Part shown: positions 4,695 through 58,735 of the stretch, piece after piece
Position numbering within the stretch: the first letter of the stretch is position 1
Layout of the letters: every line of letters starts with the position of its first letter
Assembly: GCA_030428125.1 (NCBI GenBank)
Contig: JAUIBF010000002.1
Location: 15,910-79,909 of the forward strand
Direction of reading: 5' to 3'
DNA from: a bacterium
GTDB lineage: Bacteria > Patescibacteriota > Saccharimonadia > Saccharimonadales > SZUA-47
DNA: 64,000 bases
Made by a program: the position numbers and the translations under genes
The notes under the pieces: generated by a model
The model's database searches: none
The model's input: only the letters and a program-made list of their open reading frames with translations
Told to the model about the DNA's origin: nothing

Positions 4695-4777
4695 CTAGTT
4701 TTATTTTAACACTAGTGGAGCCCTATATGTGTGTTTGTATTTTGTTCAATATTTGTTATTGTTAAAGCGTAAACGAT

Positions 4778-39925: not shown

Positions 39926-40490
39926 CAAGATACCTTTTTAGTTCTTCCGGAGAATCGACAAGTACAGGGTTGCCTGCGCTAACTCTTTCTCCACATTCAA
40001 CGATTGTCCAGCCTAACATTTCCGGTGAGTAATTTAATATACAAGTCTCATCATGTAAACTTCTGCTGCCCTGATCGATAAATATAACAATCCAGTCGTT
40101 GGCACTACCAAAATCCCTGCTTTTTATAAGATTTGAAGGAGACACGCTTTTGCCTAGCGTATTTAGCAGGGACTCTACATCTACAGGAACGGTAGTGTAG
40201 GATCTCTGAATAGTTTCTTGCGCGTCTAAACTAACAGTTTCTTCAATACTTTCTATTTTTGGTCCTGATATTTTAATTTTTAATTCACTACTAGGACTAG
40301 TGCTCGTACTATAATATTTGCCACCTTCACCTGCAGGAAACACTCGTTGGTCGTTTATAGTTACCACATTAGAAACGGGGTCGTTGTTGTCTATAGTTAT
40401 TTCGACAGTTCCCTTATTGAAGGCGCTAAAGACCACAAAGCCTAGCAAACCTAGTGCTAGTACGACGAATAATGCAACAATTTTTTTCAT
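39906..40490 (-). CDS. hypothetical N-terminally anchored protein (T4SS-like operon)
   Basis: About 194 aa. The TM segment IVALFVVLALGLLGFVVFSAF is followed by a globular domain. Its ATG overlaps the stop of the upstream 1128-aa gene (TGATG). The track start at 40493 is a TTG. Confidence 0.6.
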   Translation of the reverse strand: MKKIVALFVVLALGLLGFVVFSAFNKGTVEITIDNNDPVSNVVTINDQRVFPAGEGGKYYSTSTSPSSELKIKISGPKIESIEETVSLDAQETIQRSYTTVPVDVESLLNTLGKSVSPSNLIKSRDFGSANDWIVIFIDQGSRSLHDETCILNYSPEMLGWTIVECGERVSAGNPVLVDSPEELKRYLDENADD

Positions 40491-43400
40491 CAATTTATAA
40501 CCCCATCATCTAACAGCTGCTTAACTACGTTGGCATGTGCTTTCATATAGCTGGCTGACTCGCTATTTGTTAATTCAACTAGGAGAGCTCTTGATCCAGT
40601 GGCGTTTGCGTACCATCCCTCCATAAACCCTTGCCCCTGGTTGTTGTACAACATTCTCCAGGTGTTGGAACTGCCGTTGCACGAACCACTCTCTTGAGGT
40701 GCAAGATTAGCATATGCTTGAGCTATTGGTCGTGATTCGTTCGTGTTAGGTCCTGATGGCGCCACCCAGTTTATGCAGTCATGATAACTAATAAACAAAC
40801 TAGTCTGACCAACCGAGGTTAAGAAATTCTGAACATTTTGCGTTTCAGGTTCGCTGGCAGCACTAGGGCCGTAATAGTTTCCGTCAGAAGGATTTGAGGT
40901 GCCCTTTTCGCTCCATCGATAATCAAAGTTTCGATTCAAATTTACTCCATTTGAATTCGTACGACTACTAGATGCTATACCGGACTTATTGACCTCAGGA
41001 ATTGCAACTATCCGTACATCGTCTGGCAAGTCAGCATTATATAGAAGCTCAAAGGTAATTCGCTGCCCACCGTTTTCTGAACCGTGGATAGATGAGCCTA
41101 TCACTACTGTGCGGATATCTGACTGTCCAGCACATGCATCTCTTACGTATACTCCCTGATCGTTACCTGCGCTGTCTTGTCCGATGATTCCAGAAGGAGG
41201 GATGCTATCCCAATTAATTGCATTTTGTCCTGGTCCGAAGAAGTCAGATTCGTTTTTTGGCTCCCCCTGACATGGGATAATTGGCCCCGTTAGGTCTCCT
41301 AGCCCCACGCCCGAACCACCAGAACCACCGGAACCTCCAGGGTTTTCTGGGTTGACATCGCTTATCTCTTCAGGGAAAAGGTAGGCATCGATAAAGTCGT
41401 TCGAGTCTAAGTATGCTAAATGAATTTTAAACTCTCTTGCTCGTTGTGTTTTCCCGGTGCAGTCTAGAGTCGGGTCTGTATTGCTATCATCGTTTTCTAG
41501 TGGTGATATCGTGTCCGCAGAGTATACACAATTTTCAACGTGTTTTTCGAAATCAGATCCCGATACGATTTCGTATGGTTCATTGGGAGACACTTGACCA
41601 TCTGCAATTAACTTATCTCTATTAGCGATTTCATCCGCTTCGGTAAGCCAGCTAGGCATAAATGTTCTAAGGTTGCCCGAAGGGTCAGTTGCATACTCTG
41701 TGCCATTTATCTCCAGTGTATCGAACTCTGCTAGGTCGTCGTCTTGAGCGCTAGCACTGGCCGTTAACGTATCGGAAACCGAACCGAAAACAGAAAGAGG
41801 AGTCAGTGCTAGTGTAGAAGAGACCTGACGGACGGCTCCCACTGGATCTTGTGTTCCGAAGGCAAGAGTTGCCATTGACTGATGTGCTAGAGAATCGTAA
41901 TTATCCATAGCGAATATTCTTTCCGTGAATGATTTATTCCGAAGCTCTTCTTTCTTTTCGGCTAGATGAACGGCGTTTGCTTGAGCAAACTGAGCAGCTG
42001 TCGCCGGTACTTGTCCCCCCATCAAGGCTCTTTGCTTGTGCATTACCCCAGCTCCTGCAAATAAAACTGCGGCTAGCATAGCCCCCTCTTCTTGTCCGGT
42101 TAATCCAATAGATAATTTTTCTTGTGCGTATAGCTGTGCTAACTGCAATATCTGTTCGAAACTAATGTCTATAACTACACCCGCAGCTATACCTACAAGA
42201 GCTCTTTTTGTTACCATGGAGCGAATAGTAGCCTTAAATGCTTCGGTAAGAGCGACTTTTCCCAAAGTCGAACCGGCAGTTAACGCAGCCCCACCACTGC
42301 CAAATGTAAATATACTAATAACTACAGTTCCAATTGCAGCTGCCCCTTGGAAAAATGGATTTTGCCACACGGCACAGCCACTTATCCAGCTGACCTTATC
42401 CTTGATCAAGCCCATTAGTCCGGTTAACTTTCCGTCCACTGCGGTTCTATCACGTGTGAGCAGGTTCTTGCTAGTGCTGAATTTTCCAGTGGTTGCAAAC
42501 TGGTAATTTGTAGAATTTGCAAAATTGCCCATTACAGCGTCCGAAGTAGTTACCCTGGCAAGCAGAGCCCCGACTAAATCTGCAGAGGCCTCACCTTTTC
42601 GCTGCCCATCGTCGGCGCTGATGAATGCAAAGCTCGCCCTCATTAGCTGGATAGAGGTAAACGCTCTTGCAATAGTGACCGCCATGCTTAGCTTATTTTT
42701 TACGGCACAAATTTTATCTGCCGGGTCAGCTACGTTTAGGAGTCCTTTTACAAAACCAAATCCTTGCGTTAAAGCATTGGCGCCTTCAAGTGTACTTAAA
42801 GCGTTTGGAGCATAACCTGTTTTTATTTCATCAGTATGCTTAGCTAGACCTGGGGCATCAGCTTTGTCACCACCTTCAGCGAAGTGTTCCCTGCCTTCTG
42901 CAAACAACTCATCTCCTTCCTCGAGTCCTTGTTCTTGGACTTCTCTGCCTGCTTTTGTTGCATCATCAACGTTATCTGCGTCTTCACCGTCAGGGGCTCT
43001 CGTTCTAGTGTCTAGTTCGTCTTCACCTTGTGTGGCGTTAAACATTCTCTTATTAGTTTCTACTTCAGCATCTTCGGCATCACCCGGTAGTCTTTTTACG
43101 ATTGACTGCCTAGATACAACGCCGTAGCGCTTGTAAAAAGCTTCCATTCTGGCAGACTTCCATCTTGCCGATCTGGTCGGTTGACCAAAAATACTCCATC
43201 TTCTGTCCAGGAATTCAGATATCTCGTCGTCGACTGCTCCTACAGAAGTTGGCGCATATGTTCCGTCTGGTCTTCTTATAGCATCAATCTTGTTGGGCTC
43301 TTCGGGGTTAAATACAAAGTTATAACCTCTGGCTTCCATTTCCTTAATGACCTGACTGCCACGTCTTCCATCTATGCTAAATCGGTCCGTGAATTTTGCG

Positions 43401-43873
43401 AATTTCGACCTCCTGTAGCGTGCCTGATGACTGGCCTCCAGAGACCCCATTTTATCGGTCATTAGGGTCGACAAGTGAGTCATTATAAACGATGGTCCTG
43501 AAAGGAAAATACCAATAAACCCTAGGGTTACTCCTACTCCACCGACTCCTAAGCCCAACTTTTTTCTGTTAGCAATAACCCTTTGCTTTATAGATTTCCG
43601 TTCACCGTCCCCTGTGTAGTTTAAATCTTTGTGAGAATCGTTGCTATCTCTACCGATAGATTGTTCATTCCTCGATGTGGAGGTGTCCTGCCCGTCGTTC
43701 GTCGAAGCATTAGCTTCCTTAGCGGCAACGGCGTTTTTTGGGTCGTTTGCATATGCCTCGAGCTGATCGATGCCTGCATCTACAGATTCGTCAGTTGGCA
43801 TAGCTCTATTAGCAGGGTTTAATTCATCATCCTGCTTGTCTTCCGGTCTGGTGTCTAGATCACTACGCGCCAT
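40490..43873 (-). CDS. large membrane protein with C-terminal M14-type zinc peptidase domain (T4SS-associated)
   Basis: About 1127 aa. The disordered acidic N-terminus is followed by a TM segment (LGLGVGGVGVTLGFIGIFLSG) and several further hydrophobic segments around residues 500-640. After a GGSGGSGGSG linker, the C-terminal domain carries SSIHGSENGG (HxxE zinc site) and GVNLNRNF, both typical of M14 carboxypeptidases and gamma-D-Glu-DAP peptidases. Confidence 0.8.
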   Translation of the reverse strand: MARSDLDTRPEDKQDDELNPANRAMPTDESVDAGIDQLEAYANDPKNAVAAKEANASTNDGQDTSTSRNEQSIGRDSNDSHKDLNYTGDGERKSIKQRVIANRKKLGLGVGGVGVTLGFIGIFLSGPSFIMTHLSTLMTDKMGSLEASHQARYRRSKFAKFTDRFSIDGRRGSQVIKEMEARGYNFVFNPEEPNKIDAIRRPDGTYAPTSVGAVDDEISEFLDRRWSIFGQPTRSARWKSARMEAFYKRYGVVSRQSIVKRLPGDAEDAEVETNKRMFNATQGEDELDTRTRAPDGEDADNVDDATKAGREVQEQGLEEGDELFAEGREHFAEGGDKADAPGLAKHTDEIKTGYAPNALSTLEGANALTQGFGFVKGLLNVADPADKICAVKNKLSMAVTIARAFTSIQLMRASFAFISADDGQRKGEASADLVGALLARVTTSDAVMGNFANSTNYQFATTGKFSTSKNLLTRDRTAVDGKLTGLMGLIKDKVSWISGCAVWQNPFFQGAAAIGTVVISIFTFGSGGAALTAGSTLGKVALTEAFKATIRSMVTKRALVGIAAGVVIDISFEQILQLAQLYAQEKLSIGLTGQEEGAMLAAVLFAGAGVMHKQRALMGGQVPATAAQFAQANAVHLAEKKEELRNKSFTERIFAMDNYDSLAHQSMATLAFGTQDPVGAVRQVSSTLALTPLSVFGSVSDTLTASASAQDDDLAEFDTLEINGTEYATDPSGNLRTFMPSWLTEADEIANRDKLIADGQVSPNEPYEIVSGSDFEKHVENCVYSADTISPLENDDSNTDPTLDCTGKTQRAREFKIHLAYLDSNDFIDAYLFPEEISDVNPENPGGSGGSGGSGVGLGDLTGPIIPCQGEPKNESDFFGPGQNAINWDSIPPSGIIGQDSAGNDQGVYVRDACAGQSDIRTVVIGSSIHGSENGGQRITFELLYNADLPDDVRIVAIPEVNKSGIASSSRTNSNGVNLNRNFDYRWSEKGTSNPSDGNYYGPSAASEPETQNVQNFLTSVGQTSLFISYHDCINWVAPSGPNTNESRPIAQAYANLAPQESGSCNGSSNTWRMLYNNQGQGFMEGWYANATGSRALLVELTNSESASYMKAHANVVKQLLDDGVIN

Positions 43874-43893
43874 CAAGGATCTCTCGTTTTTAT

Positions 43894-45807
43894 TTATTGA
43901 ATTTGTACAGTATCATTATACCCTGTTTGATTTAAATCCACTTGTGCTTGTTGACCCTGTTGCTCCATGCGTTTTACCTCTTCTGGATTGGTTGTGATTA
44001 GGCTGGTTTCAGTTGGGCTGGCAACAACCTGGATGTGAACATGGTTAGAGCCGGCAAAGAACAAACCTTGTCCCACAGGGAATTGACTAAGTCTCTTCTT
44101 CTCTTCGCTAGTCAGCTTGAAGGTATTGGCTAGCACATCAACTGCCGAAGACGATTGCTTCAGCAGAATTTGCATACTTGCATTTGCAACGATTGCTCGT
44201 CCCATACGTGAACCCATAAAATCTTCTACGTCTTGAGTTATAGTGGTTATTCCAAGGTTATACTTACGTGCTCGCTTGGCTAGTGAGAACAAGAAATTTG
44301 CACTGTCTTCGTATTTCATAAGTTGCCAAGCTTCATCAACAACCAAAATTCGTTTTTTCTTATCACTTTTAGTTTTATTCCAAATAAAGTTCAAAACAAT
44401 GTACATTGCGACTGGTCTTAGTTCATCTTCGAGATCTCGGATGTTAAAAACAACCAGTGGATTATTGATGTCTATGTTGCTTTGCTGTGAAAATATCCCA
44501 GCGAAGGTCCCAGTAGTGTACTTGCGCAATCTTTGAGCAAGCTGAGGACCGGTACCCCCCATATGAAGCAAAGTGTCATAAAGGTCATTTATAGTCGGCG
44601 CTGGAGATCTATGAGTCAGTGGATCATTGGTTATGCCTGCTTTGGCGTAGGTTTCAATCAGTGCAGCGTCTAGGTCGGACTCTTCGACCGGACTTAAAGC
44701 TGGAGCAATCATTTGATTCCCAGAATTAGCCATTTGTGCTTGTGCGCCACCCATCATAAGCCTGAGCAGGCCATGCAAAGTTATCAGGTTACTACGCAAG
44801 GCATTATCGGCTTCCTCGTCATCAGTTACTTGTGGTAGGTCAAATGGATTAATTCTAGTGGAGCTGTTTAGGCTCAAGCGAACATATGCTCCACCTACGG
44901 CGTCGGCCATGCGCTGGTATTCGTTTTCAGGGTCAATGATAAATACTTCAGTGCCAAACATCATACTTCTCAGGGCCTCTAACTTGACGGTGAAGCTCTT
45001 ACCAGCACCGGACTTTGCAAACACTACACTGTTGCCATTTTCTAGCGAAAATCTGTCGAATATAACCAGACCGGAGTTGTGCATATTTATCCCATACAAA
45101 ATTCCATTGTCTTGCGTTAAGTCGGCACTGGTGAATGGGAAGCTGGTGCTTATAGCACCGGTATTCATATTCCTTCTAATCTGTAGTTGATCGGTAAATT
45201 GTGGGATTGTAGAGTTTAGGCCCTGCTCCTGTTGGGCGCTTGCCGGTTTACTGTAAACAAGCTGTTGGCCCAAAACACTCTCTACCTTATGGGATACAAA
45301 TTCCATTTCTTCGTCAGAACTAGCGTAAATTGTAAAGTACAGGCCGAATCGGAAAAATCTCTCCTCTCCAACCTGTAGTTTGTCTCTTAGCTCCTCGGCA
45401 TCTTGGATAGCTGATTGTTTGCCTGGATCTCTAACTTTTCCTTTTTCGGCGTCGATTTGTATACCCGCTTCAAGCTGACCTACTTTTTTTCGAAGATTTT
45501 CTAGCACTACTTGACTCTCGACTGGGTAAATAAATATCGATAAATCCAGAACCTCGTCCAAGTTAATCATACTGGAGAGCCATCCTGTAAATATCTGTCT
45601 AGGGTAACCATAGACATAGTAGGTTCTACCTAATCTTGTGCCGATTTTGAACTGTGCGCTTTCAAATTCTAGAGAAGCAGGAGCTATGAAATCGCGAAGA
45701 GCTGTAATGCCCTTTTGAAAAGCTGCTTGTACTTCTTGTTGTTCGCGCTGTGCTTGAGCTTGAGCGGCTGCAACTGGGTCTTCTTTTTGTTTCTTTCCTA
45801 ATGCCAT
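43894..45807 (-). CDS. virB4: VirB4/TrbE/PrgJ-family type IV secretion ATPase
   Basis: 637 aa. Walker A VVFAKSGAGKSF and Walker B RILVVDEAW. Upstream, FKIGTRLGRTYYVYGYPRQIFTGWLSSM matches the conserved VirB4 middle region. ITTITQDVEDF is sensor-like. Confidence 0.92.
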   Translation of the reverse strand: MALGKKQKEDPVAAAQAQAQREQQEVQAAFQKGITALRDFIAPASLEFESAQFKIGTRLGRTYYVYGYPRQIFTGWLSSMINLDEVLDLSIFIYPVESQVVLENLRKKVGQLEAGIQIDAEKGKVRDPGKQSAIQDAEELRDKLQVGEERFFRFGLYFTIYASSDEEMEFVSHKVESVLGQQLVYSKPASAQQEQGLNSTIPQFTDQLQIRRNMNTGAISTSFPFTSADLTQDNGILYGINMHNSGLVIFDRFSLENGNSVVFAKSGAGKSFTVKLEALRSMMFGTEVFIIDPENEYQRMADAVGGAYVRLSLNSSTRINPFDLPQVTDDEEADNALRSNLITLHGLLRLMMGGAQAQMANSGNQMIAPALSPVEESDLDAALIETYAKAGITNDPLTHRSPAPTINDLYDTLLHMGGTGPQLAQRLRKYTTGTFAGIFSQQSNIDINNPLVVFNIRDLEDELRPVAMYIVLNFIWNKTKSDKKKRILVVDEAWQLMKYEDSANFLFSLAKRARKYNLGITTITQDVEDFMGSRMGRAIVANASMQILLKQSSSAVDVLANTFKLTSEEKKRLSQFPVGQGLFFAGSNHVHIQVVASPTETSLITTNPEEVKRMEQQGQQAQVDLNQTGYNDTVQIQ

Positions 45808-45825
45808 TATTTGTAAACCCTCATC

Positions 45826-46650
45826 CTAAATATCCATCTCTCGTTCTAGTTGTGGTTGAGCTGCTTCGCCTTCGCCTTTGGTAACGACAGGTGCGTCCAT
45901 ATCCTTAAAAGTTCGAAGCTTCTGCCGGGTAGCTGTATCAGGATTGTATGCATCGTAGTAAAGTTCAATTAGTTCTTGAGTATCAAGCGGGACACTTTGT
46001 ACCCCACACTGTTGCAGACCTGCCATAACTGCCTGGATACGGTTTCGGAGCTCAGTCTTACCCCCTTCTAGAGCTTGCTCATTAATGACAACTCGCTCTT
46101 CTTTTTTACCAAGTATGTTGGTGAAAAAACCTTTGGTAGCCTGAACAGCCGCTTGAGCATCGGCTGACTTAAAGTAAGGAATAATTATATAGAATCTCTT
46201 ATCCATGATATTGGTTTGCATTGAGATGTTTGACATGAAGGTAATGTAATCTTCCATCAAAAGCGCAAGTAACATATTGTCGTGTTCGCTTCTTATGCGA
46301 TCCATTTTTTCAATATAAGGTCTCATATCGACCTTTGAGCTTCTGACAAAAATCTGAATCGGAAAGTACAGTGAATTTAAGAACCCTTGATAACTGAACT
46401 CTACCGCCTCACGTTCTTCACCACTCATTAAATCGAAGTTGATGCTCTGACAAGCAATTACAGCCCTAAAACTCCCATCATTCATAATGACTATTCCGTC
46501 TCTTACTTCAGCTATCTGGAGTGTGTTCTGAGTACTGTTTGGATTAGATGGAGGTGGAGGTGTTGGTTGTTGCTGTCCTGGCATAGCACCAACCTGAGTT
46601 GTCGCCTGCATTCCTGGATTTGTGTTTGGTGCTTGTTGATCTGGATTCAT
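45826..46650 (-). CDS. hypothetical protein resembling the extreme N-terminal domain of Gram-positive VirB4/TcpF-type ATPases
   Basis: 274 aa. After a Q/P-rich head, IAEVRDGIVIMNDGSFRAVIACQSINFDLMSGEEREAVEFSYQGFLNSLYFPIQIFVRSSKVDMRPYI follows a pattern I recall from memory at the start of monoderm VirB4 homologues (dgii-..-y-kvlev-pinf-L-s-eE-..-fLn-l-..-qi). It lies 18 nt upstream of virB4. Confidence 0.55.
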   Translation of the reverse strand: MNPDQQAPNTNPGMQATTQVGAMPGQQQPTPPPPSNPNSTQNTLQIAEVRDGIVIMNDGSFRAVIACQSINFDLMSGEEREAVEFSYQGFLNSLYFPIQIFVRSSKVDMRPYIEKMDRIRSEHDNMLLALLMEDYITFMSNISMQTNIMDKRFYIIIPYFKSADAQAAVQATKGFFTNILGKKEERVVINEQALEGGKTELRNRIQAVMAGLQQCGVQSVPLDTQELIELYYDAYNPDTATRQKLRTFKDMDAPVVTKGEGEAAQPQLEREMDI

Positions 46651-46671
46651 TAACTTTTCCCACCGGACTCA

Positions 46672-47805
46672 CTAGTGCAATGAAATTACAACTTCATCAT
46701 CCGCTGGGTCATCGTCCTTTTTATGCCCTTGGCGCTGAATAGTCTCAACGTCTAAGTCGTTGTTGTATACGTACTTAAGCATATCAGGTTTCGTCTCTGT
46801 TGTCATTGATTGATTTTGGGTTGTTGGTTCAGGTTTTGGTAGTATCTCGGGCTCTTTCTTTTTCGAAAAAGGATCGACCTTACGAATGTGCGAAGTTTGT
46901 AACTTATCTCGACGTTGTTTTTCGTGGACTTTTTCCAATAAAGCAGACTCATCTAGGGGTTTATCGTCCGAGGAGGTGGTTTGACTACTTGAAATAGGCT
47001 GTGATTGACCAGGATGTATTACTGAACTAGCGCCGAATGTAGCCAAGCTTGGGTCTGACGGGGCTTGTTTTTGGTGCATAAACCAGAAGTCTTCTTGTTT
47101 ACCGTTGTCACCTTTGTGTTGAAGACGCTTCAATTTCTGATTGTTTGATTCTGGTTCTTCAGAGCCTTGCGAATCTTCTCTTGCGTTCTCGATAAGCTTA
47201 CGAGCTTCCGACTTATGCTTGGCTTCTGATTCCTGAATTTTGCTATCGAACTGTTTGGCTATAACTCCACTGTTCTCGTCCATAACATCATCTGGGTTGT
47301 CGGTGATAGTAACACTGGTTTGTTCAGTTACATTCCCACTAACAAGTCTGTCGCTGGGTTCTACGGTACTTCCACTATAGTTTTTCACAGCCCAACCTCG
47401 ACTATCCACCATTGTTGCCAGTGCACTCAGTCTGTTACGGACCTCGCCCTGTGACAGACCATCTGTAAAGTTGCGTGCAACTTGTTTGGGTACAGTAATT
47501 TCGACAAGATGCTTCATACCAGTTTGATCCCAAATACGTCTTCTAGGCTTAATCAGAAATCTGATGCGTGCTGCCAACCAAAGCTCAGTCGGTTGTTCTT
47601 TACTCCAGGGAAAAGTTAGGAAACCGAATACAATCATCGGCAAACCGAATATAGGGGTTAAAAAGGCTAGATTCTTGGTCAACAAGATGAAAACTAAATA
47701 GCCACAGACAGCAGTCAGGCCGCCGAATACGAATTGTTTGAAACTTAGTGGGCCTAAGAACTTGTCATCGGCCTCCACGTCTTGAGGAACTTTGTATGTT
47801 GCCAT
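46672..47805 (-). CDS. PrgI/VirB3-like T4SS membrane protein with long disordered C-terminal extension
   Basis: 377 aa. The N-terminus TYKVPQDVEADDKFLGPLSFKQFVFGGLTAVCGYLVFIL plus a second TM helix is the PrgI-family layout. The remaining about 250 aa are polar and low complexity. Confidence 0.68.
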   Translation of the reverse strand: MATYKVPQDVEADDKFLGPLSFKQFVFGGLTAVCGYLVFILLTKNLAFLTPIFGLPMIVFGFLTFPWSKEQPTELWLAARIRFLIKPRRRIWDQTGMKHLVEITVPKQVARNFTDGLSQGEVRNRLSALATMVDSRGWAVKNYSGSTVEPSDRLVSGNVTEQTSVTITDNPDDVMDENSGVIAKQFDSKIQESEAKHKSEARKLIENAREDSQGSEEPESNNQKLKRLQHKGDNGKQEDFWFMHQKQAPSDPSLATFGASSVIHPGQSQPISSSQTTSSDDKPLDESALLEKVHEKQRRDKLQTSHIRKVDPFSKKKEPEILPKPEPTTQNQSMTTETKPDMLKYVYNNDLDVETIQRQGHKKDDDPADDEVVISLH

Positions 47806-47856
47806 TTCATAAGCATTATAACACCTGTAAAAGCATTAAAAAATAGCTTCTGAAAA

Positions 47857-48681
47857 TTACCAACGTGCTTCTATAGCGGCATTTACAGCATCAAGCTTGG
47901 CTTTCTTTTTAGCGTGTCTATCCTGTTTTTTATGGTGTCTTTTTACATCTTTATGTAGTGGCTCAAGAAATTCTTCGTGGGCCTTCTCGTGTCTCTTAAC
48001 ACTACGGCTTTGTCTAAAGCTCAAATCCCTCTGTCTTACGGCGTGTGCTCTTGTACGTTCCAGTCCTTTTTCACGCCATTCCTTTTTAGCCTCAACAATC
48101 TTATCTCGGGTTTTTCTTTGTCTTCTAGTTGTTGGTCTTAAATCATCTGCTACATAAGGTCTTTTACCGGCTGCTGCTGTTTGCGCCTGCGTGTATTCAT
48201 CAACAGCACCATTGCTAGTGTCAGTCGCTATGTCTGCATGACTACTTGGAGCAGCTCTACTAATCGTATCAGTTAAATGCCATGTGGTTACGGCGTCTTT
48301 TTCTGCTTCTTCAGCTTTGACACGAGCTCTGTTGACGGTGTGAGTTAAGATGAAACTTCTTAAGTTTAGCAATCCTCTAGGCTGTCTTCCACTGTAAGCC
48401 TCAAAGTCAGTGGGTTCTCTGTGAATCATCTCTGCAAAGTTTGGTACGGTGTTGTCGGGGTCTGTAGGATCAACTGTAGTTAGCTCTACAATTCTGTTTA
48501 GGCCGGGTACCGACGGAATGTGTGCATCAACCTTTATTTCACGATGAATATCAGGAACAACTGTAGAGTTATTTACCCCAACTCTTGCCCCACCATTAAT
48601 AGGTGTAGTGTGATCAAGTGCCGCATCAATTCTAGCCGCTTGTTCAGGTGTGTGGTTGTAGGTTGGTGTACGACCTGGCAT
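47857..48681 (-). CDS. hypothetical protein, strongly basic C-terminus (T4SS-like operon)
   Basis: 274 aa with no TM or signal peptide. The C-terminal 100 aa are R/K/H-rich (RRQRKTRDKIVEAKKEWREK...HHKKQDRHAKKKAK). Confidence 0.5.
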   Translation of the reverse strand: MPGRTPTYNHTPEQAARIDAALDHTTPINGGARVGVNNSTVVPDIHREIKVDAHIPSVPGLNRIVELTTVDPTDPDNTVPNFAEMIHREPTDFEAYSGRQPRGLLNLRSFILTHTVNRARVKAEEAEKDAVTTWHLTDTISRAAPSSHADIATDTSNGAVDEYTQAQTAAAGKRPYVADDLRPTTRRQRKTRDKIVEAKKEWREKGLERTRAHAVRQRDLSFRQSRSVKRHEKAHEEFLEPLHKDVKRHHKKQDRHAKKKAKLDAVNAAIEARW

Positions 48682-48736
48682 AGTATCTATATACTAACAT
48701 AAAATTACAGAAAAAGCAATAGCATTATGTAAAAAT

Positions 48737-51700
48737 CTATGCGCCGCCGTCGCCTCCAGGCATTTGGCCACTTCTTCGCATTTCTTCCATCTGTTGCTGC
48801 GACATCGCGTTAGTTTTTCTGACGTAGGAGTCACTACCTTCGGAACGAGCAAATTCCATTTCACTCTGTACGGTTCTTGGCTCGTTAACATACGTAACGA
48901 CCTTTTCTGTTCTCATAGTCGGTCTTCCATCTGGGCCTACTTCAGGGTTGCCAGTTGCATCTACGACATACTGGTCAACAAGCTTCCTGCGCTTAAGTCT
49001 ATCAGTACGATTTCCATTCTCGTCCAACAAGACTTCCTCTAACTTTACTGCACCCTTAGTCTTTACTATTTCTTGTTCGGTTATAGTTTCATCGAATACG
49101 GCAACATTTTCCGGAGAGAAGTAAGCTACCTGTTGTTTTGCGTTATTAATCTCTGCTAATTTGTAATTTCTCCTGTCTGTAGCGACCTTAAGTTCGTTTT
49201 GAAGCTTAACGTTTGTTGGGTCGCTCTGTGCTGCAGCAAGCGCAACCTCGTACTGCTCATCGGCTTCATCGAACTGCATTTTGAGTGCTTGAGCATTATT
49301 TCTAACTGATGTCGCATGGCCTCCCCATATTTGTGCTGAGCTTTTGCCTTCGTAGCCTTTCTGTAGTAGGCGTTTCTTAACATCGTTCATTACCTGGATC
49401 TTTTCGTCTGGTGATGCCCCTATAATTTGACCCATGGCTGCTAAGCCCTCACCATAACTATAATTAGCCAAGTCTCCACGTCCTGCTTGCTCGGCCTTGC
49501 CTCTTGCGGCATTGTATACGTACGCTCCAAGCTGCATATCTCCTTCTACTGCCTCGCCTATTGATTCAAGCATTTCGTCTGGTCCACCTCTGAACGAAGT
49601 CTTCGACCCAGCTTGCGCAATAACTGCTTGTGCGTCGAACACCTCTTGACCGACTCTTCTGGCAGCTGCAACACTTCTTCTTGCGCCATCTCTGGCATCT
49701 TCTTCTGAATATTTCTGCATAGTTTTTCCGTTTTCATCATAAATAAGGTTACCTTGTTCGTCAGTTTTTTGAAGTCCAGCTAGGTATTCGTATGCTGCTT
49801 GTTCACTTCCCCTGGCGAGGCGTCCAGCTGCCCCAAAGTCATCGTTTGCTATAACTGCCTGAAGTGCAAAGTCATCATTAGCTTTCTTAATCTTTTCTAA
49901 TTTTATATCGGTCAGGCCCGAGTCTAGTCCAGCTTTGGACATTCCAAACCCGAATCCACCTTCTGTGATTGCTCTTTTTCTAGCACTGTGTTCAAGTGTT
50001 CTTCTGTTCATTGCCGTTGCAAATTTACCGGTGCCTTTATACCTCTCACCTAAACTTGCTTGTTCGCGCGCATGTTTGGAAAGTTCAGCGCGCTTTTTAC
50101 GACTTCTGTCGAATATACCCTTGCTTTTGTCATTTACCATTCCGGCTATATTCGCGAATACTCCACCTGCGTATTTAAATGCCGCTGGTATAAAGAAGTA
50201 TGGTCCTACAACTGCCACGAGCTTTATTATAGTTCCCACGACGGGGTCGGCGTTACCTGCATCACCAACTACCAAAGCAAAAACTCTACCGGTTGTAATC
50301 AAGGCCATGATAAGAGGAAACAATATTAAAAGCTTCCAAAAAGCTGTCCACCAGAACTTCCATGGTTTATCATTCCCCGGGAAAATCCACGCCAATATGG
50401 CGAGAGGACTAACAAGCATCAAGAAAATTATTGCCATTTCCCTGAAGGCTAATAAAGTAAAAATAATTAGTAATGATAAAGCCACTAAGCCTACAGTAAT
50501 GCCCAAAGTTATCCAAGTAACAGAACCTATTACTGAAGCCACTCCGGCGCCTACTGAAGTGCCAACTGCAGTTCCACGCGCTAAGAAGTAAGCAAGGATT
50601 ACACCAGCAGTTGCTACCGTACCGCCTGTTCCAGGGTCAAAAATGTCTCTCAGAGTCAGGTTAGACAGTCCACCCCACGGGGCTGCAATTATCCCCGCAA
50701 TTCCTTGACCTAACAGGTTTACTAACTCAATTAAAAACGTACAAATATAAAAAGAAAGAGCGATGAATATTATAGCTGCCAACATCCTAGGCAGTGCCCT
50801 TTTAACGGTGTAGGCGTCTAAGAACTGAAAGCCCAGGGCTGTACCTATGACCATAATAAGCATGGTCGGAATTAAGAGGATGAACGCCAAATCTCTAATA
50901 TTTGCCCATGCATCCTGAATTTTTGCATCATTGTAGTAAGCATTTTCTACCCTAAGCAAGCTGATTATTTTGTCGTCTAACCAGCCTAGAGCTTGATCGC
51001 CTGCCCACAACAAAGGACAAAGTACAAAGTTGAATGCAAATTCAGTACCTTCACAGCTTCTGTCAGGCCCTTCATTGACACCGGTGCCAACTGCTCCCTG
51101 ACCTGCTTGAATCGAACGATTATCAACATCACCAATAACTACTTGTCTTCTGGAAGTTTCCACACACTCATCAAGGCTATCAAGTTCGCTATCGCTTTGC
51201 TCTATAAGCTCGGCTGTAGTATCTCCAGTTACTTCAACCACTGTTTCTTTACAATCATCACTACTATCAGGTAAAAAATCGTTTCTGCCTTGTTGTTGAA
51301 TATAAACCTCGTTGGTAACTACGTGCTGCAATGTACCTGCATCAATCCACACCAATTCAATCCTTGAGTTACTAGTTGCGTTTAGGGTTAGGGAGTCATC
51401 AGTCTCATCACAATTACCAGTTCTTGGATCCTTGGTTTTTGTATGTAGTCTAGCGTTTCCTACTTTATTGGTATCTTCAACATCACTAGTATCAAAATCT
51501 TTTACTTCGCTTACACAGTCTCCTTGTACTCCATCCAATTTGTAGTTTAAGTCTCCATCATACGGATTTATGTCTATGTATAAGTCGTCACCAATCTGTA
51601 TGGTCGCAATATTAACCCAAGCACCAGTTGCAGCAAGAGTAATCTGCGGGAATATAATATTAAAGGCAGTAGTCAGTAGTAGCCCACCTGCCAACACTAT

Positions 51701-51811
51701 TAATAAAGGTTTTTTTATGTATCGAAACAGCATCATAACTTTTATGCTAACTATAACAGAATCATAGTAATTTTGCTCGCTGTTTATCTCTTTGCTAAAA
51801 CGTAGTATCAT
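48737..51811 (-). CDS. VirB6/TrbL/PrgH-like polytopic T4SS channel protein, giant form
   Basis: 1024 aa. Anchor sequence, an extracytoplasmic domain of about 250 aa, then at least six TM helices including REMAIIFLMLVSPLAILAWIFPG (TrbL/VirB6-like), then a soluble C-terminal region of about 450 aa. The likely true start is MMLFRYIKKP at about 51736, which leaves a 99-nt divergent promoter region. Confidence 0.7.
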   Translation of the reverse strand: MILRFSKEINSEQNYYDSVIVSIKVMMLFRYIKKPLLIVLAGGLLLTTAFNIIFPQITLAATGAWVNIATIQIGDDLYIDINPYDGDLNYKLDGVQGDCVSEVKDFDTSDVEDTNKVGNARLHTKTKDPRTGNCDETDDSLTLNATSNSRIELVWIDAGTLQHVVTNEVYIQQQGRNDFLPDSSDDCKETVVEVTGDTTAELIEQSDSELDSLDECVETSRRQVVIGDVDNRSIQAGQGAVGTGVNEGPDRSCEGTEFAFNFVLCPLLWAGDQALGWLDDKIISLLRVENAYYNDAKIQDAWANIRDLAFILLIPTMLIMVIGTALGFQFLDAYTVKRALPRMLAAIIFIALSFYICTFLIELVNLLGQGIAGIIAAPWGGLSNLTLRDIFDPGTGGTVATAGVILAYFLARGTAVGTSVGAGVASVIGSVTWITLGITVGLVALSLLIIFTLLAFREMAIIFLMLVSPLAILAWIFPGNDKPWKFWWTAFWKLLILFPLIMALITTGRVFALVVGDAGNADPVVGTIIKLVAVVGPYFFIPAAFKYAGGVFANIAGMVNDKSKGIFDRSRKKRAELSKHAREQASLGERYKGTGKFATAMNRRTLEHSARKRAITEGGFGFGMSKAGLDSGLTDIKLEKIKKANDDFALQAVIANDDFGAAGRLARGSEQAAYEYLAGLQKTDEQGNLIYDENGKTMQKYSEEDARDGARRSVAAARRVGQEVFDAQAVIAQAGSKTSFRGGPDEMLESIGEAVEGDMQLGAYVYNAARGKAEQAGRGDLANYSYGEGLAAMGQIIGASPDEKIQVMNDVKKRLLQKGYEGKSSAQIWGGHATSVRNNAQALKMQFDEADEQYEVALAAAQSDPTNVKLQNELKVATDRRNYKLAEINNAKQQVAYFSPENVAVFDETITEQEIVKTKGAVKLEEVLLDENGNRTDRLKRRKLVDQYVVDATGNPEVGPDGRPTMRTEKVVTYVNEPRTVQSEMEFARSEGSDSYVRKTNAMSQQQMEEMRRSGQMPGGDGGA

Positions 51812-51835
51812 GACTAGTGAAAAGCTCGCATTTTT

Positions 51836-52627
51836 ATGAAAATTCTAAAACACACACTTTTTGTTATAGTTGCCTCCTTGGGGGTCATACAACTGCACTT
51901 AGCACTAAGCACCGGCGTGGCGTCAGCAGATACAGATTCAGTGGTTTGTCAGCCAGGCTACGTTACGAACCCAACAGATCCAACCTCATGCGTTACTCCC
52001 GAACGTGCATGTGAAATTACTGATGGTGTTTGGGTTGAGATACCTTCGCCTCCTAATGAAAATCGAGGTTCGAGCTTTGCTTGTGATTGCCCTGGCAACA
52101 ACGTATTGCTGAATAGTGGGTGCGTCAGCCAAGCCGAGCGTGATTGTGTTAACTCTGATGGCGAATGGGTTGAGATACCTTCGCCTCCTAATGAAAATCG
52201 AGGTTCGAGCTTTGCTTGTGATTGCCCGGGAGATGAAGTGCTTGTAAATGGTAGGTGTGAAGTGCCAACTTCAGATAGTGGAAGCACAGGCACAACAGGT
52301 GGCCAGGCTGATACTGGTGGTAGGGCTAGTCTGGCATCAAATGATCCGACTGCGAATTGTGAACCACCTAATGGTGATCCCCTGGACTCAGAGAACTGCA
52401 GGATAATCGGGATAATTGTTGATGCTATAAATATCCTTTCTGGGTTAGCAGGACTGGCAATCGTTGCCTCTCTAGTTATTGCTGGTTATCAGTACATGAC
52501 AGCTAGAGATAATGCTGGACAGATACAAAAAGCAAAAACTCGTATAATCTGGGCCCTCAGTGCTCTGGCGTTATTCATATTTATGTACGCAATATTGAAC
52601 TTCTTGGTTCCTGGGGGTGTATTGTAA
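51836..52627 (+). CDS. VirB2/TrbC-like pilin-like protein (paralog 1 of 7) with Cys-rich tandem-repeat N-terminal extension
   Basis: Signal peptide ...STGVASA. Two 45-aa repeats (W VEIPSPPNENRGSSFACDCPG) in a region with 12 Cys. C-terminal two-helix module IIGIIVDAINILSGLAGLAIVASLVIAGYQYMTARDNAGQIQKAKTRIIWALSALALFIFMYAILNFL. Confidence 0.72.
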   Translation: MKILKHTLFVIVASLGVIQLHLALSTGVASADTDSVVCQPGYVTNPTDPTSCVTPERACEITDGVWVEIPSPPNENRGSSFACDCPGNNVLLNSGCVSQAERDCVNSDGEWVEIPSPPNENRGSSFACDCPGDEVLVNGRCEVPTSDSGSTGTTGGQADTGGRASLASNDPTANCEPPNGDPLDSENCRIIGIIVDAINILSGLAGLAIVASLVIAGYQYMTARDNAGQIQKAKTRIIWALSALALFIFMYAILNFLVPGGVL

Positions 52628-53106
52628 TGCTTAAAAAATTCGTCCACGTTTTAATTGTCTTTACGCTTTTAACTTTTGGCATCCAAATACTAACCAGTCA
52701 GAACGTGTCTGCTGCTGACGGAGGTGACGACTGTGGTAGTAGAACTTTTTTGGGCTTCCTGCCTGCGTGGGATAAGTATTTAGCCCATGAAGAAGTAAAC
52801 CACAGGTGTACTCCAGTCATAAACGGCGCCGAGGCTGCATTGCCTATCGGAATAGCAATTCTTGAAGCAGCTATCAGGTTAGGTGGATTAGTCGCAGTTG
52901 TAATGATTATCGTAGGATCGTTTAGATTTATAACCTCTCAAGGAAACCCCGAAAATGCCGCTGCTGCTAGAAAGACTATCATTAATTCCTTGGTTGGGTT
53001 GGTGATAGTAATAATATCAACCTCCGTTGTAAGTTTTTTGGGGACCACGCTATCTGAGTCTAGTGGCGATTCCAGCTATCTAAATTATAGTAAGGAAATA
53101 TCGTGA
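52627..53106 (+). CDS. VirB2/TrbC-like pilin-like protein (paralog 2 of 7)
   Basis: Signal peptide and a Cys pair. Module GIAILEAAIRLGGLVAVVMIIVGSFRFITSQGNPENAAAARKTIINSLVGLVIVIISTSVV. The start overlaps the previous stop. Confidence 0.75.
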   Translation: MLKKFVHVLIVFTLLTFGIQILTSQNVSAADGGDDCGSRTFLGFLPAWDKYLAHEEVNHRCTPVINGAEAALPIGIAILEAAIRLGGLVAVVMIIVGSFRFITSQGNPENAAAARKTIINSLVGLVIVIISTSVVSFLGTTLSESSGDSSYLNYSKEIS

Positions 53107-53393
53107 ATATATTAACTAGATTAGCTCAGATTAATATTGGCGAGGATGAATTAAGGATACCCACCACGGAACCGAACGAGTCCACTATTACCACAGTAAT
53201 GAGTTATGTGTTTGCAATTGCAGGGGGTGTGGCATTAATCGTGATTATAGTAGCCGGCATACAGTTCATGCTGAGTCGTGGCGATCCCCAAAAAGCAGCA
53301 GCTGCACGAGCCACAGTTATTTATGCAGCTATTGGTCTAGTAGTTGCTACCCTCGCGTTCAGTATAGTTAGATTTGTTGTAGGATCTCTATGA
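53103..53393 (+). CDS. VirB2/TrbC-like pilin-like protein (paralog 3 of 7, minimal)
   Basis: 96 aa with no obvious signal peptide or Cys pair. Module VMSYVFAIAGGVALIVIIVAGIQFMLSRGDPQKAAAARATVIYAAIGLVVATLAFSIV. 4-nt overlaps on both sides. Confidence 0.7.
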   Translation: MNILTRLAQINIGEDELRIPTTEPNESTITTVMSYVFAIAGGVALIVIIVAGIQFMLSRGDPQKAAAARATVIYAAIGLVVATLAFSIVRFVVGSL

Positions 53394-53800
53394 TAAATAT
53401 TAGAAATATACTACTCTCGATTATCACCCCCCTTATTTTTGTATTGGTATTGTTGCCGGCGTCCACAAGCGCATTCGATCCAATTGATGAGAGCTGTAAT
53501 AATATACCTGACACTTCTCAGAGATCTGAGTCTGAGGTGTGCAGTGAAGCAATGGATCCAGAAGACCCTATTACGGGTACAGATGGAGTTATACTTAAGA
53601 TTGCGGATGTTTTAGCGATTATCGCAGGTATTATAGCTGTAATAGTTATTATTATCGCAGGGATGACTATGATGACATCCAGTGGAGATGCCACTAAAAT
53701 TAAAAACAGTAGAAACGCAATTATTTACTCAATTGTTGGGGTAATTGTTGTTGTGTTAGCTAGAAGTATCGTAATATTCATAATTAATCAAACAGGATAA
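53390..53800 (+). CDS. VirB2/TrbC-like pilin-like protein (paralog 4 of 7)
   Basis: Signal peptide and a Cys pair (SCNN...EVC). Module ILKIADVLAIIAGIIAVIVIIIAGMTMMTSSGDATKIKNSRNAIIYSIVGVIVVVLARSIV. Confidence 0.75.
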   Translation: MINIRNILLSIITPLIFVLVLLPASTSAFDPIDESCNNIPDTSQRSESEVCSEAMDPEDPITGTDGVILKIADVLAIIAGIIAVIVIIIAGMTMMTSSGDATKIKNSRNAIIYSIVGVIVVVLARSIVIFIINQTG

Positions 53801-53804
53801 TTTC

Positions 53805-54320
53805 ATGGTCTTAACAAAAAAATTAAACATATTAATCACAGTAGCGTTAGCGCTAATTTCAATTATCAGCATAACAGTCGCTAATCCATCGTTAACTAGC
53901 GCAGCCTCTGCAAAAGATGCTGTATGTAAGTCACTGGGCGCGACAGATGAAGACACCACAAGTGGTGATTGTAGTGGAGGTGGGACTAAGATTAATGATG
54001 TACTTAAGATTGTGCTAAATATACTCTCGTTTGTCGCAGGTGTTATAGCAGTGATCATGATTATTATTTCAGGCATAAAGTTTATTACTTCACAGGGTGA
54101 CTCTGGTTCGATAGCGTCTGCCAGGACAACCGTTATCTATGCCATTGTGGGCGTGGTTATAGTTCTAGTGTCTCAAGTGATCGTTAGGTTAGTATTGACG
54201 GAGGCAGCCCAACTACAGGAACCAGGTTCCGGCTCCAGTACGTCCGCACCTAGTGGAGGTGGCAGTGAACCTACGTGCGTAGAACCAGGTCAAGTTGGTG
54301 GTGGAATTCCATGTGAATAA
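53805..54320 (+). CDS. VirB2/TrbC-like pilin-like protein (paralog 5 of 7)
   Basis: Signal peptide and a Cys pair. Module VLKIVLNILSFVAGVIAVIMIIISGIKFITSQGDSGSIASARTTVIYAIVGVVIVLVSQVIV. G/S-rich tail ending with two Cys. Confidence 0.75.
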   Translation: MVLTKKLNILITVALALISIISITVANPSLTSAASAKDAVCKSLGATDEDTTSGDCSGGGTKINDVLKIVLNILSFVAGVIAVIMIIISGIKFITSQGDSGSIASARTTVIYAIVGVVIVLVSQVIVRLVLTEAAQLQEPGSGSSTSAPSGGGSEPTCVEPGQVGGGIPCE

Positions 54321-54395
54321 TTGGGTTGCTTTGAGCTATTGTTCATAGACCTGAGCTATGGTATAAACATAAGTAGATAACTATAAGGAATAAAT

Positions 54396-54854
54396 ATGTC
54401 TAAACTAAAAAGAATAATTTTAACTATCGCAGCTAGCTTAGGCTTGCTAGCACCTGCAGCTATGCCAGCTACAGTATTTGCCGCAGACCCAGCAGATCCA
54501 GAAACTACAGCACCTAGTATCCAGGATGGTTTATGTCAGGGTGCAGAACTGATGGTCGGTGCCGATTGTACGGATGTAACCGAAGCAAATGCAGCTAAAG
54601 GCGTAAACGACATCATTACTACCGTCATCAACATCTTCTCTATCGTTGTCGGTGTCATTGCAGTCATTATGATTATTGTTGGTGGTCTTAAGTACATCAC
54701 ATCTGGTGGCGACTCTGGAAACATCACAGGAGCAAAGAATACCATTCTATACGCAATCGTAGGTCTTGTAGTAGTAGCCTTAGCACAAATTATCGTAAGG
54801 TTTGTTTTGACAGAGACTGGTGATTTGGGCGCTCCTGAAGATCCGGGGATTTAA
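54396..54854 (+). CDS. VirB2/TrbC-like pilin-like protein (paralog 6 of 7)
   Basis: Signal peptide MSKLKRIILTIAASLGLLAPAAMPATVFA and a Cys pair. Module IITTVINIFSIVVGVIAVIMIIVGGLKYITSGGDSGNITGAKNTILYAIVGLVVVALAQIIV. Confidence 0.78.
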   Translation: MSKLKRIILTIAASLGLLAPAAMPATVFAADPADPETTAPSIQDGLCQGAELMVGADCTDVTEANAAKGVNDIITTVINIFSIVVGVIAVIMIIVGGLKYITSGGDSGNITGAKNTILYAIVGLVVVALAQIIVRFVLTETGDLGAPEDPGI

Positions 54855-54885
54855 GCTATCCTAAACTCCTAGAAAGCAAAAAGTA

Positions 54886-54909
54886 GTAGGCGACCAGATG
54901 GTTGCCTAC
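54886..54909 (+). terminator. hairpin terminator between pilin paralogs 6 and 7
   Basis: gtaggcgacc-agat-ggttgcctac (10-bp stem including one G-U) followed by tcttaatttg. The T-run is weak. Confidence 0.4.
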
Positions 54910-54961
54910 TCTTAATTTGTGTGGTAAAAACGTAAGGTAGAGTAATAGAGAAGGTAATAGT

Positions 54962-55405
54962 ATGTCTAAACTAAAAAGAATAATTTTAACTATCGCAGCT
55001 AGCTTAGGCTTGCTAGCACCTGCAGCTATGCCAGCTACAGTATTTGCTCAGCCAAGTATTCAAGAAGGTCTGTGTCAGGGTGCTGAACTGATGGTCGGTG
55101 CCACATGTCAGCAGGTATCGGACGCGGACGCTGCAGGTGGGGTCAATGAAGTTATAGAAACCGTCATCAACATCTTCTCTATCGTTGTCGGTGTCATTGC
55201 AGTCATTATGATTATTGTTGGTGGTCTTAAGTACATCACATCTGGTGGCGACTCTGGAAACATCACAGGAGCAAAGAATACCATTCTATACGCAATCGTA
55301 GGTCTTGTAGTAGTAGCCTTAGCACAAATTATCGTAAGGTTTGTTTTGACAGAGACTGGTGATTTGGGCAGTGGTAGTAGCGGTGGTGGTACAGGCGGGA
55401 TATAA
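54962..55405 (+). CDS. VirB2/TrbC-like pilin-like protein (paralog 7 of 7; mosaic duplicate of paralog 6)
   Basis: The first 86 nt and a 210-nt 3' block (55160..55369) are identical to paralog 6 (54396..54481; 54621..54830). The centre and the tail differ. Confidence 0.78.
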   Translation: MSKLKRIILTIAASLGLLAPAAMPATVFAQPSIQEGLCQGAELMVGATCQQVSDADAAGGVNEVIETVINIFSIVVGVIAVIMIIVGGLKYITSGGDSGNITGAKNTILYAIVGLVVVALAQIIVRFVLTETGDLGSGSSGGGTGGI

Positions 55406-55433
55406 CCACACCAATCTCTTGGACTAAATAACG

Positions 55434-55461
55434 AAACCTCTGGCTTTTAAACCAGAGGTTT
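55434..55461. terminator. bidirectional terminator between pilin array and hsp20
   Basis: aaacctctgg-cttttaaa-ccagaggttt is a perfect 10-bp stem flanked by A/T runs, between convergent genes. Confidence 0.6.
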
Positions 55462-55485
55462 CTTAACTAAACAGTGTTTGTTTTA

Positions 55486-58245: not shown

Positions 58246-58357
58246 TGGCGGAGAGAGAGGGATGGCCGGTGAAAAACCGGCGGAACGAACTCCCGCGAGG
58301 GTTCGAACCACTTTCTGCAAAGAAAGTCAGAATTACCTAATGGTACTTCTGCCTCTC
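58246..58357 (-). other. tRNA-Ser 3'-end duplication plus ~95-nt hairpin-rich spacer (pseudo-tRNA or att-like scar)
   Basis: The 17-mer tggcggagagagaggga (rc TCCCTCTCTCTCCGCCA, i.e. T-stem 3' strand + acceptor 3' strand + CCA) occurs at 58246 and again at 58358 as the true tRNA end. The spacer contains GGTTCGAACC and four short hairpins. I cannot fold it into a cloverleaf because there is no GAGGG partner for the CCCTC T-stem strand. Confidence 0.35.
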
Positions 58358-58447
58358 TGGCGGAGAGAGAGGGATTCGAACCCTCGAGGCGATTTCTCGC
58401 CTACACACTTTCCAGGCGTGCCAGTTCAACCACTCCTGCACCTCTCC
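58358..58447 (-). tRNA. tRNA-Ser (anticodon GGA)
   Basis: rc = GGAGAGG-TG-CAG-GAGTGGTTGAA-CTG-G-CACGC-CTGGAAA-GTGTG-TAGGCGAGAAATCGCCTC-GAGGG-TTCGAAT-CCCTC-TCTCTCC-G-CCA. This is a class II fold with a 5-bp variable arm, a canonical T-loop and an encoded CCA. Confidence 0.93.
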
Positions 58448-58735
58448 TTACTCGCAGGGTGCGACTTAACTTCTCAAAATCACTCTTTGAGTAATTTTTC
58501 GCAGTTTGCTTCCTGCTCGCTTCAATTCTTCAAACAGCAAGCTTGGTTTGAAGAATTGGCTTTACTTGCACAGAACAAGTGTATCTTGTTGAACTATATA
58601 CTTCAAAGTGATTGCCGTGTTCTATTTCGAGAATCCTCTCTCGAATTTTAAATCGGCTACAAATATACAGAATATATTATTTTTTCAATTCTTATGCTTG
58701 TGTTATCTGTTGTAACAGATGTAAAATAGTACTAA

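Follow-up and report, generated by a model that had tools for sequence, protein, structure and literature searches.

The last two of seven tandem pilin genes in a Saccharimonadales type IV secretion system (T4SS) cluster have very probably exchanged sequence by recent gene conversion, a reading in which we include a variant where one central segment was imported from another strain. The genes lie in a stretch of 64,000 nt (contig JAUIBF010000002.1 of assembly GCA_030428125.1, positions 15,910-79,909 of the forward strand; lineage SZUA-47, Saccharimonadales), hereafter the window, whose coordinates are used throughout. We name them by their place in the array: W6 is the sixth pilin gene (54396..54854, plus strand; an open reading frame (ORF) of 152 aa, 'a-type', with the short acidic tail APEDPGI) and W7 the seventh (54962..55405, plus strand; an ORF of 147 aa, 'b-type', with the Gly/Ser-rich tail SGSSGGGTGGI). 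Both encode VirB2-like T4SS pilins.

Direct string comparison of window positions bears out the two identical blocks proposed in a sequence-only reading of this DNA. The 86 nt over the signal peptide (54396..54481 and 54962..55047) match exactly and extend by one base on the left, to 87 nt (54395-54481 in W6). A repeat search puts the onset of similarity 11 nt before the ATG, within the ribosome-binding site (RBS) region, and the first putatively converted tract, comprising this region and signal-peptide codons 1-29, covers 97 nt at 96% identity (plus strand, 54385..54481 in W6 and 54951..55047 in W7). The second tract is an exact 210 nt that extends no further on either side (plus strand, 54621..54830 and 55160..55369); it comprises codons 76-145, which encode both hydrophobic helices and the loop between them. 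Exact DNA identity amounts to 297 nt, and the two proteins are 85-88% identical. When the 54 differences were permuted over the 429 aligned sites, none of 20,000 runs left an identical block of at least 210 nt, the longest being 88 nt, and a 51-nt piece of the 210-nt block is found nowhere in the window but in these two copies (0 expected by chance).

The segment between the blocks, estimated from the sequence alone at roughly 110-140 nt and heavily substituted, measures 139 nt in W6 (residues 30-75, 54482..54620, plus strand) and 112 nt in W7 (residues 30-66, 55048..55159, plus strand). The two centres are set apart by a 27-nt indel and 38 substitutions over 111 aligned nt (34% of aligned bases), W6 carrying a unique nine-residue insertion, ADPADPETT. 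The centre and tail peptides quoted in the earlier reading agree with the translations. Its description of the centre as the mature N-terminal region with the Cys pair also stands, with the amendment that 13 residues at the start of helix 1, as modelled below, also belong to the centre. The phrase 'identical flanks' fits the signal peptide and the core and fails for the C-terminal tails (54831..54851 in W6 and 55370..55402 in W7, plus strand), which are not converted; everything outside the interval from position -11 to codon 145 is unrelated. Within the centre, the codons for CQGAELMVGA (54534..54563 vs 55073-55102, plus strand) show 1 mismatch in 30 nt, and the same codons are nearly all synonymously different in a homologous pair, that of locus L002 described below. 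The distribution of differences is suggestive, though only that, of a third short converted tract in this Cys-loop island.

The case for conversion is carried by synonymous divergence. For each segment we took the codons at which both genes specify one and the same degenerate amino acid, counted how many of them differ, and calculated the proportions of synonymous (pS) and nonsynonymous (pN) differences by the Nei-Gojobori method. Between W6 and W7, such codons differ at 1/27 positions in the signal peptide, 12/24 in the centre and 0/69 in the core (centre vs flanks, Fisher p = 3e-9), with pS values of 0.04, 0.71 and 0.00, respectively, and a centre pN of 0.23. Synonymous heterogeneity along the paralogs is therefore sharp, as in concerted evolution. 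The sequence-only reading had called for dS to be computed by segment and had allowed that the central differences might be neutral, with similar dS in the flanks; instead, dS differs sharply between flanks and centre.

For comparison we used three Logan contigs (L001, L002 and L003) and one metagenome-assembled genome from NCBI (L004, GCA_041618555.1). The syntenic pair of L002, which encodes proteins P0004/P0005, serves as a saturated control: its cores differ at only 3/70 residues, yet core pS is 0.70, and the longest DNA word common to the two genes is 21 nt. Same-amino-acid codons of this pair differ at 12/27 positions in the signal peptide, 20/30 in the centre and 36/66 in the core, the last against 0/69 in the window (p = 7e-15). 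Because the L002 core proteins are nearly identical at a pS of 0.70, protein constraint alone fails to explain the DNA identity in the window, which therefore needs a recent copying event. Recent conversion or homogenisation, as the earlier reading had it, accordingly gains support from both the flank-to-centre contrast and the saturated control.

Extreme purifying selection, combined with a codon-usage or RNA-level constraint, might in principle hold the core DNA identical in the absence of any conversion. The core is indeed the most conserved part of the family: in an alignment of 59 homologs, all invariant columns fall in residues 78-137 except G49 and C58. However, besides the L002 paralogs, which have the same core protein at saturated synonymous sites, orthologs with 94-97% identical core proteins show pS values of 0.58-0.81, and pairs of pilin genes from different loci almost never share an exact 30-mer (8/26,771). 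We regard the probability of this explanation as negligible.

The duplication that gave rise to W6 and W7 is far older than the identical tracts, because tail types, spacer and gene order are common to relatives whose cores are saturated. Gene order is common to the window, L002 and L004: a short-tail gene, a Gly-rich-tail gene, and convergent HSP20 and PRTase genes, the L002 pair being followed by the same two convergent genes as in the window. Tails of the first genes are short (APEDPGI in the window, TE and E in the other two genomes), and those of the second genes are Gly/Ser-rich and end in GG[IL] in all three. The spacer between the paired genes keeps a hairpin with a GGTTGCC arm and a TGGTATAAAC-like motif in each of these genomes, and both the centre pattern of W7 (QPSIQEGLC...VSDADAA...IET) and its tail type agree with the second gene of the L002 pair. 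Core pS among the three genomes is 0.58-0.81, and the window cores, identical to each other, have a pS of 0.58-0.73 to every ortholog. Signal peptides are genome-specific, with MSKLKRII...AAMPATVFA in both window genes and MSRIKRILL...AALPATV in both L002 genes; concerted evolution is thus visible even at the protein level.

These observations bear on an alternative history, a young duplicate in which positive selection drove fast divergence of centre and tail while the flanks are identical merely through youth. In its favour, the amino-acid differences cluster where exposure is expected, and nearly all of the invariant columns lie in residues 78-137. Young copies, however, would have low dS throughout, whereas the centre is synonymously saturated (pS 0.71, 12/24) and the flanks are near zero; dN/dS in the centre is only about 0.1-0.3; and an a/b pair that matches in tails, spacer hairpin and downstream genes is present in L002 and L004, whose cores are saturated with respect to those of the window. 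An old pair with a saturated centre therefore effectively rules out youth plus fast divergence, and we consider this history highly improbable. A mutational hotspot at the centre that raised synonymous and nonsynonymous changes alike, such as targeted mutagenesis, would revive it; there is no sign of one.

A different sequence of events would be re-duplication or whole-gene conversion, after which a foreign centre, and perhaps a tail, was imported from a diverged strain by homologous recombination. The W6 centre shows no clear first-gene orthology (pN of 0.25 to L2a, 0.24 to L2b and 0.23 to W7) and carries the insertion found in W6 only, the identical blocks on either side would be ideal recombination anchors, and competence is documented in Saccharibacteria (PMC10633639). 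Against this, two conversion tracts take fewer events than import does; the W7 centre and both tails are orthologous by position to those of L002 and L004; and the closest donor-like sequences found reach 77-85% protein identity. We judge import to be distinctly unlikely; as it would still require conversion of the flanks, it is a variant of gene conversion between W6 and W7 rather than an escape from it.

Conversion between neighbouring pilin genes is not confined to the window. We retrieved 160 related loci, all from Saccharibacteria/Saccharimonadales wherever the record names a taxon. In typical adjacent paralogs, 50-65% of the same-amino-acid core codons differ. The L004 pair (1-342 / 452-904, 94% identical), in which the first gene is truncated by the contig end and the signal peptide is not covered, has a freshly homogenised centre (1/38 same-amino-acid codons differing) and an older core (13/65). 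An adjacent pilin pair in an unrelated Saccharibacterium (L058, 4222-4644 / 4737-5159; the same organism is represented by L132, 3222-3644 / 3737-4159) is an independent mosaic, more extreme than that of the window: signal peptides and N-terminal halves are about 25% identical, while in the last ~75 codons 8/67 same-amino-acid codons and 2/70 amino acids differ, with a 77-nt exact run. Patchy tracts occur in the L100 (586-993 / 1117-1557) and L153 pairs; as terminal-pilin pairs, those of L002 and L100 are 91% and 79% identical, respectively. Different lineages have thus converted different segments, and the window pair has the longest exact tracts seen among the loci. An exact 30-mer is shared by 16/275 within-locus pairs (40-60% protein identity), a number slightly inflated by a few loci that duplicate one organism, vs the 8/26,771 different-locus pairs mentioned above, an enrichment of ~190-fold. 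Conversion over short tracts is thus a general feature of adjacent pilin genes in such arrays.

The same survey helps to weigh an assembly or polishing artefact, in which repeats were collapsed, polishing reads were mapped to the wrong copy, or centres were joined to the wrong flanks. The sequence apparently derives from a metagenome-type assembly, and exact repeats of 87 and 210 nt some 550 nt apart are hard for short-read assemblers. Nevertheless, relatives assembled independently, three in Logan runs and a fourth as an NCBI metagenome-assembled genome, contain the tandem pair, which speaks against the earlier reading's concern that a single gene had been rendered as two; the combination of centre and tail in W7 agrees with that of its L002 ortholog, indicating that repeat resolution did not exchange the cassettes; the ~25% nucleotide divergence expected of an unconverted core is more than polishing could remove; and similar near-identical tracts are found in many unrelated assemblies. 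An artefact is very unlikely. The L001 and L003 contigs both stop after 23 codons of the pair's second gene (L001, 6545-6613; L003, 1157-1225), and L002 reads through; because the two end at the same point, the locus is suggested to be prone to breaking short-read assemblies.

Both proteins are T4SS pilins by family, as the sequence-only reading had supposed. They match PF18895 (T4SS_pilin) with 49.8 bits (W6) and 50.5 bits (W7) against a cut-off of 26.6, as do all seven tandem ORFs at 51836-55405 and all homologs found, and in each a signal peptide precedes a hairpin of two helices. PF04956 (TrbC/VirB2) scores 24.2 and 23.7 bits, below its cut-off of 27.9. A putative cleavage motif, VFA followed by A or Q, is present in the sequences. 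The AlphaFold 2 model of W6 (predicted local distance difference test score, pLDDT, 72) has a signal helix at 2-27, helices at 63-102 and 107-144 joined by a four-residue loop (103-106), and a disordered tail, with residues 30-60 at low confidence (pLDDT below 55). A profile search of the PDB gave only a spurious transmembrane match, and Foldseek against the PDB produced no match at E <= 0.001; the conjugation pilin of Aeropyrum, 8dfu, ranked sixth with E = 4.7. In the family alignment, the mature N-terminal region and the tail are variable among orthologs as well.

We propose the following history. W6 and W7 would descend from an old tandem duplication of the last pilin of a Saccharimonadales T4SS array, and non-reciprocal homologous recombination between the direct copies would recently have overwritten two stretches of one copy, namely the RBS with the signal peptide and the whole two-helix membrane/polymerisation core, leaving the mature N-terminal segment and the C-terminal tail unchanged. 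The predicted topology comprises a cleaved signal peptide, an outward N-terminus, helix 1, a cytoplasmic or lumenal loop, helix 2 and an outward C-terminus; on this topology, both unconverted segments would lie outside the membrane and, if the solved VirB2/TraA pili are a guide, on the outer face of the pilus. The cell would accordingly make two pilins with identical parts for export, membrane insertion and packing, and with different surfaces. Core identity may be favoured or tolerated if both subunits use one assembly machine and probably one filament lattice. The surface parts may be kept distinct by selection against their conversion, or may simply be too diverged for strand exchange, 34% divergence and an indel forming a mechanical barrier. 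The tracts end exactly at the predicted signal-peptide cleavage site, at Thr76 (the codon with which the core begins, within predicted helix 63-102) and at the last residue before the tail. Boundaries at these points are suggestive of selection, in a single case.

Several results weigh against this account or restrict it. All between-genome core pS values are saturated and carry no information on the direction, number and age of the conversion events; a comparison of the window core with each ortholog (pS 0.58-0.73), made to derive the direction, was uninformative for this reason. Exact-protein look-ups of W6, W7 and P0001 in an assembly index returned no encoding contig and no second assembly, and scans of genome and metagenome contigs yielded no near-identical relative, the best match having 60-62% protein identity. 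The exposure of the variable parts rests on topology and on a medium-confidence model that has no significant fold match to a solved pilin. Finally, centre dN/dS is below 1, at about 0.33 raw and 0.13 after Jukes-Cantor correction (dS being saturated), and the centre of the L004 pair has been homogenised; selection for distinctness of the centre is thus not demonstrated, and the L004 case implies that the centre is not generally protected from conversion.

The earlier claim that diversification has been retained in the exposed segment consequently survives only in part. The centres do differ, but the divergence is old, its dN/dS is below 1, and in L004 the corresponding segment has been homogenised. 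Codon substitutions indicate relaxed purifying selection on the centre, with no signal of positive selection, and an adaptive interpretation of it is unproven. A bolder possibility is that the identical blocks are fixed recombination anchors for shuffling the outward N- and C-terminal pilin modules, between paralogs or, via competence, between strains; we regard it as rather unlikely, and assign the same low probability to its further component, that selection favoured core conversion on account of both subunits entering the same filament. Compatible with such anchors, and no proof of them, are the second gene of L004, which combines an 'a-type' centre with a 'b-type' tail, the near-identical cores of L058 next to N-terminal halves that cannot be aligned, and the coincidence of tract boundaries with domain boundaries. 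If this were true, the array would be a modular surface-variation system for a host-contacting organelle.

W6 and W7 close an array of seven pilin genes; paralogs 1-5 (51836-52627, 52627-53106, 53103-53393, 53390-53800 and 53805-54320, plus strand) match PF18895. Upstream and on the opposite strand are divergent T4SS core genes (43894..51811) identified by Pfam matches: a VirB4-like ATPase (43894-45807, PF19044/PF12846), a PrgI/VirB3-like gene (46672-47805) and a VirB6/TrbL-like membrane protein of 1024 aa (48737-51811), whose L001 ortholog carries PF19590 (TrbL_3). W6 and W7 hence belong to a T4SS cluster that includes VirB4. M23 and M14 peptidases are also encoded on the opposite strand upstream of the array. 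Directly upstream of the T4SS cluster (37170-55405) lie dnaA (33398-34768), dnaN (35015-36106) and recF (36127-37173), placing the pilin array ~17-20 kb from the probable replication origin, in agreement with a published remark that some Patescibacteria have a T4SS adjoining dnaA. Among the related loci, the usual layout is about six pilin genes, the last being of the W6 type, with the six-gene arrangement seen in ~80 Saccharimonadales loci; about one in ten loci has seven or eight, several with a second W6-type copy. This last pilin is the most conserved of the array and looks separately transcribed.

In the window, W6 and W7 look like separate transcription units, unlike the abutting or overlapping paralogs 1-5, because each has an upstream motif and each is followed by a hairpin. 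The conserved motif TGGTATAAAC upstream of W6 (54359..54368, plus strand), identified in spacer alignments and resembling an extended -10 element, has the counterpart TGGTAAAAAC before W7 (54922-54931, plus strand); in both genes and their orthologs it lies ~25-30 nt upstream of the start codon, and we take it to be a putative promoter motif. A sigma-70 scan gave 9 matches, vs 9.4 in shuffled sequence, none of them upstream of W6 or W7. One terminator-like hairpin stands between the two genes (54885..54910, plus strand), a GGTTGCC-containing hairpin that is also found in the L002 and L004 spacers, and a palindromic one, common to the convergent HSP20 gene, follows W7 (55433..55462).

Two other members of the array have peculiarities of their own. 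Within paralog 1 (51836-52627, 263 aa), a 135-nt unit is duplicated in tandem at 81% identity (51999-52122 / 52134-52257); the unit encodes a Cys-rich module (..DGxWVEIPSPPNENRGSSFACDCPG..) in a long N-terminal extension. Paralog 5 (53805-54320) has a long low-complexity tail (54204-54320) with its own Cys pair (..EPGSGSSTSAPSGGGSEPTCVEPGQVGGGIPCE) and a Gly/Ser-rich part similar in composition to the W7 tail; as a partner in exchange with W6 or W7 it was rejected, a repeat search having found no common tract of at least 15 nt. Beyond the cluster, a tRNA-Ser (GGA) gene at 58358-58447 on the minus strand lies within a plus-strand ORF of 129 aa (58262-58651), which, because of this overlap, is probably not a real gene.

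The system to which these genes belong is known. VirB2-like pilin arrays have been described in the T4SS of Patescibacteria/Saccharibacteria (Wang et al. 2023, Cell, PMC10633639; Quinonero-Coronel et al. 2025, Microb Genom, PMC12102498; FEMS review, PMC12857230); the T4SS and its array are essential in Southlakia epibionticum, so far the only Saccharibacterium in which this has been examined, and the literature terms the Patescibacterial T4SS pilus 'potential'. The published arrays share with the window the same family (PF18895), about six tandem pilins beside VirB6-, VirB3/PrgI- and VirB4-like genes near dnaA, and no relaxase in sight. In contrast to the published survey, in which within-array identity averages 25% and reaches a maximum of 54% at the amino-acid level (PMC12102498), the window pair is 85-88% identical, and the L004, L002 and L100 pairs also exceed that maximum. 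We found no mention of gene conversion in Patescibacterial pilin arrays in the literature that could be searched.

Closest by analogy are the VirB2 paralogs of Anaplasma phagocytophilum and A. marginale, with 8-15 tandem virB2 copies (Al-Khedery et al. 2012, PMC3556328). Like the window pilins, these proteins have a signal peptide and two hydrophobic helices, and their hypervariable regions, one N-terminal near a cysteine and the other near the C-terminus, correspond to the places where W6 and W7 differ. The two families are only remotely related, PF04956 falling below the cut-off here, and the biology differs: Anaplasma is a diderm intracellular pathogen in which host immunity or tick-versus-mammal expression is the proposed driver, whereas the window organism is a monoderm epibiont whose partner is another bacterium.

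In mechanism, the exchange resembles a textbook process. RecA-dependent gene conversion underlies the concerted evolution of tufA/tufB and of rRNA operons, as well as antigenic variation at Neisseria pilE/pilS. The window pair likewise shows the marks of non-reciprocal copying, sharp-edged identical tracts and mosaic genes, with conserved segments placed as recombination anchors around variable cassettes. Unlike the silent, promoterless and truncated donor cassettes of a pilE/pilS-type system, W6 and W7 are both complete, each with an RBS, start codon, signal peptide, promoter-like motif and terminator-like hairpin, and a system of that type was rejected. We have no evidence of programmed high-frequency switching, and no search for an initiating element was made. 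Moreover, the homogenised part of the window pilins is the conserved part, while in Neisseria it is the variable part that is replaced.

Gene conversion between W6 and W7 is thus a clear but ordinary case of a textbook process in a known pilin array; what is new is its occurrence, and recurrence, in this Saccharimonadales array, which is essential in S. epibionticum. It corrects the published picture of within-array pilins as always highly diverged (maximum 54%), and it carries a practical warning, as exact repeats in these loci can break or scramble short-read metagenome assemblies. A common assembly pathway or filament lattice is probable for these pilins, given that adjacent paralogs repeatedly exchange the helix-hairpin core yet each retain an N-terminal region and a tail of their own. 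The latter two parts would be free to specialise, which makes them candidates for contact with the host.

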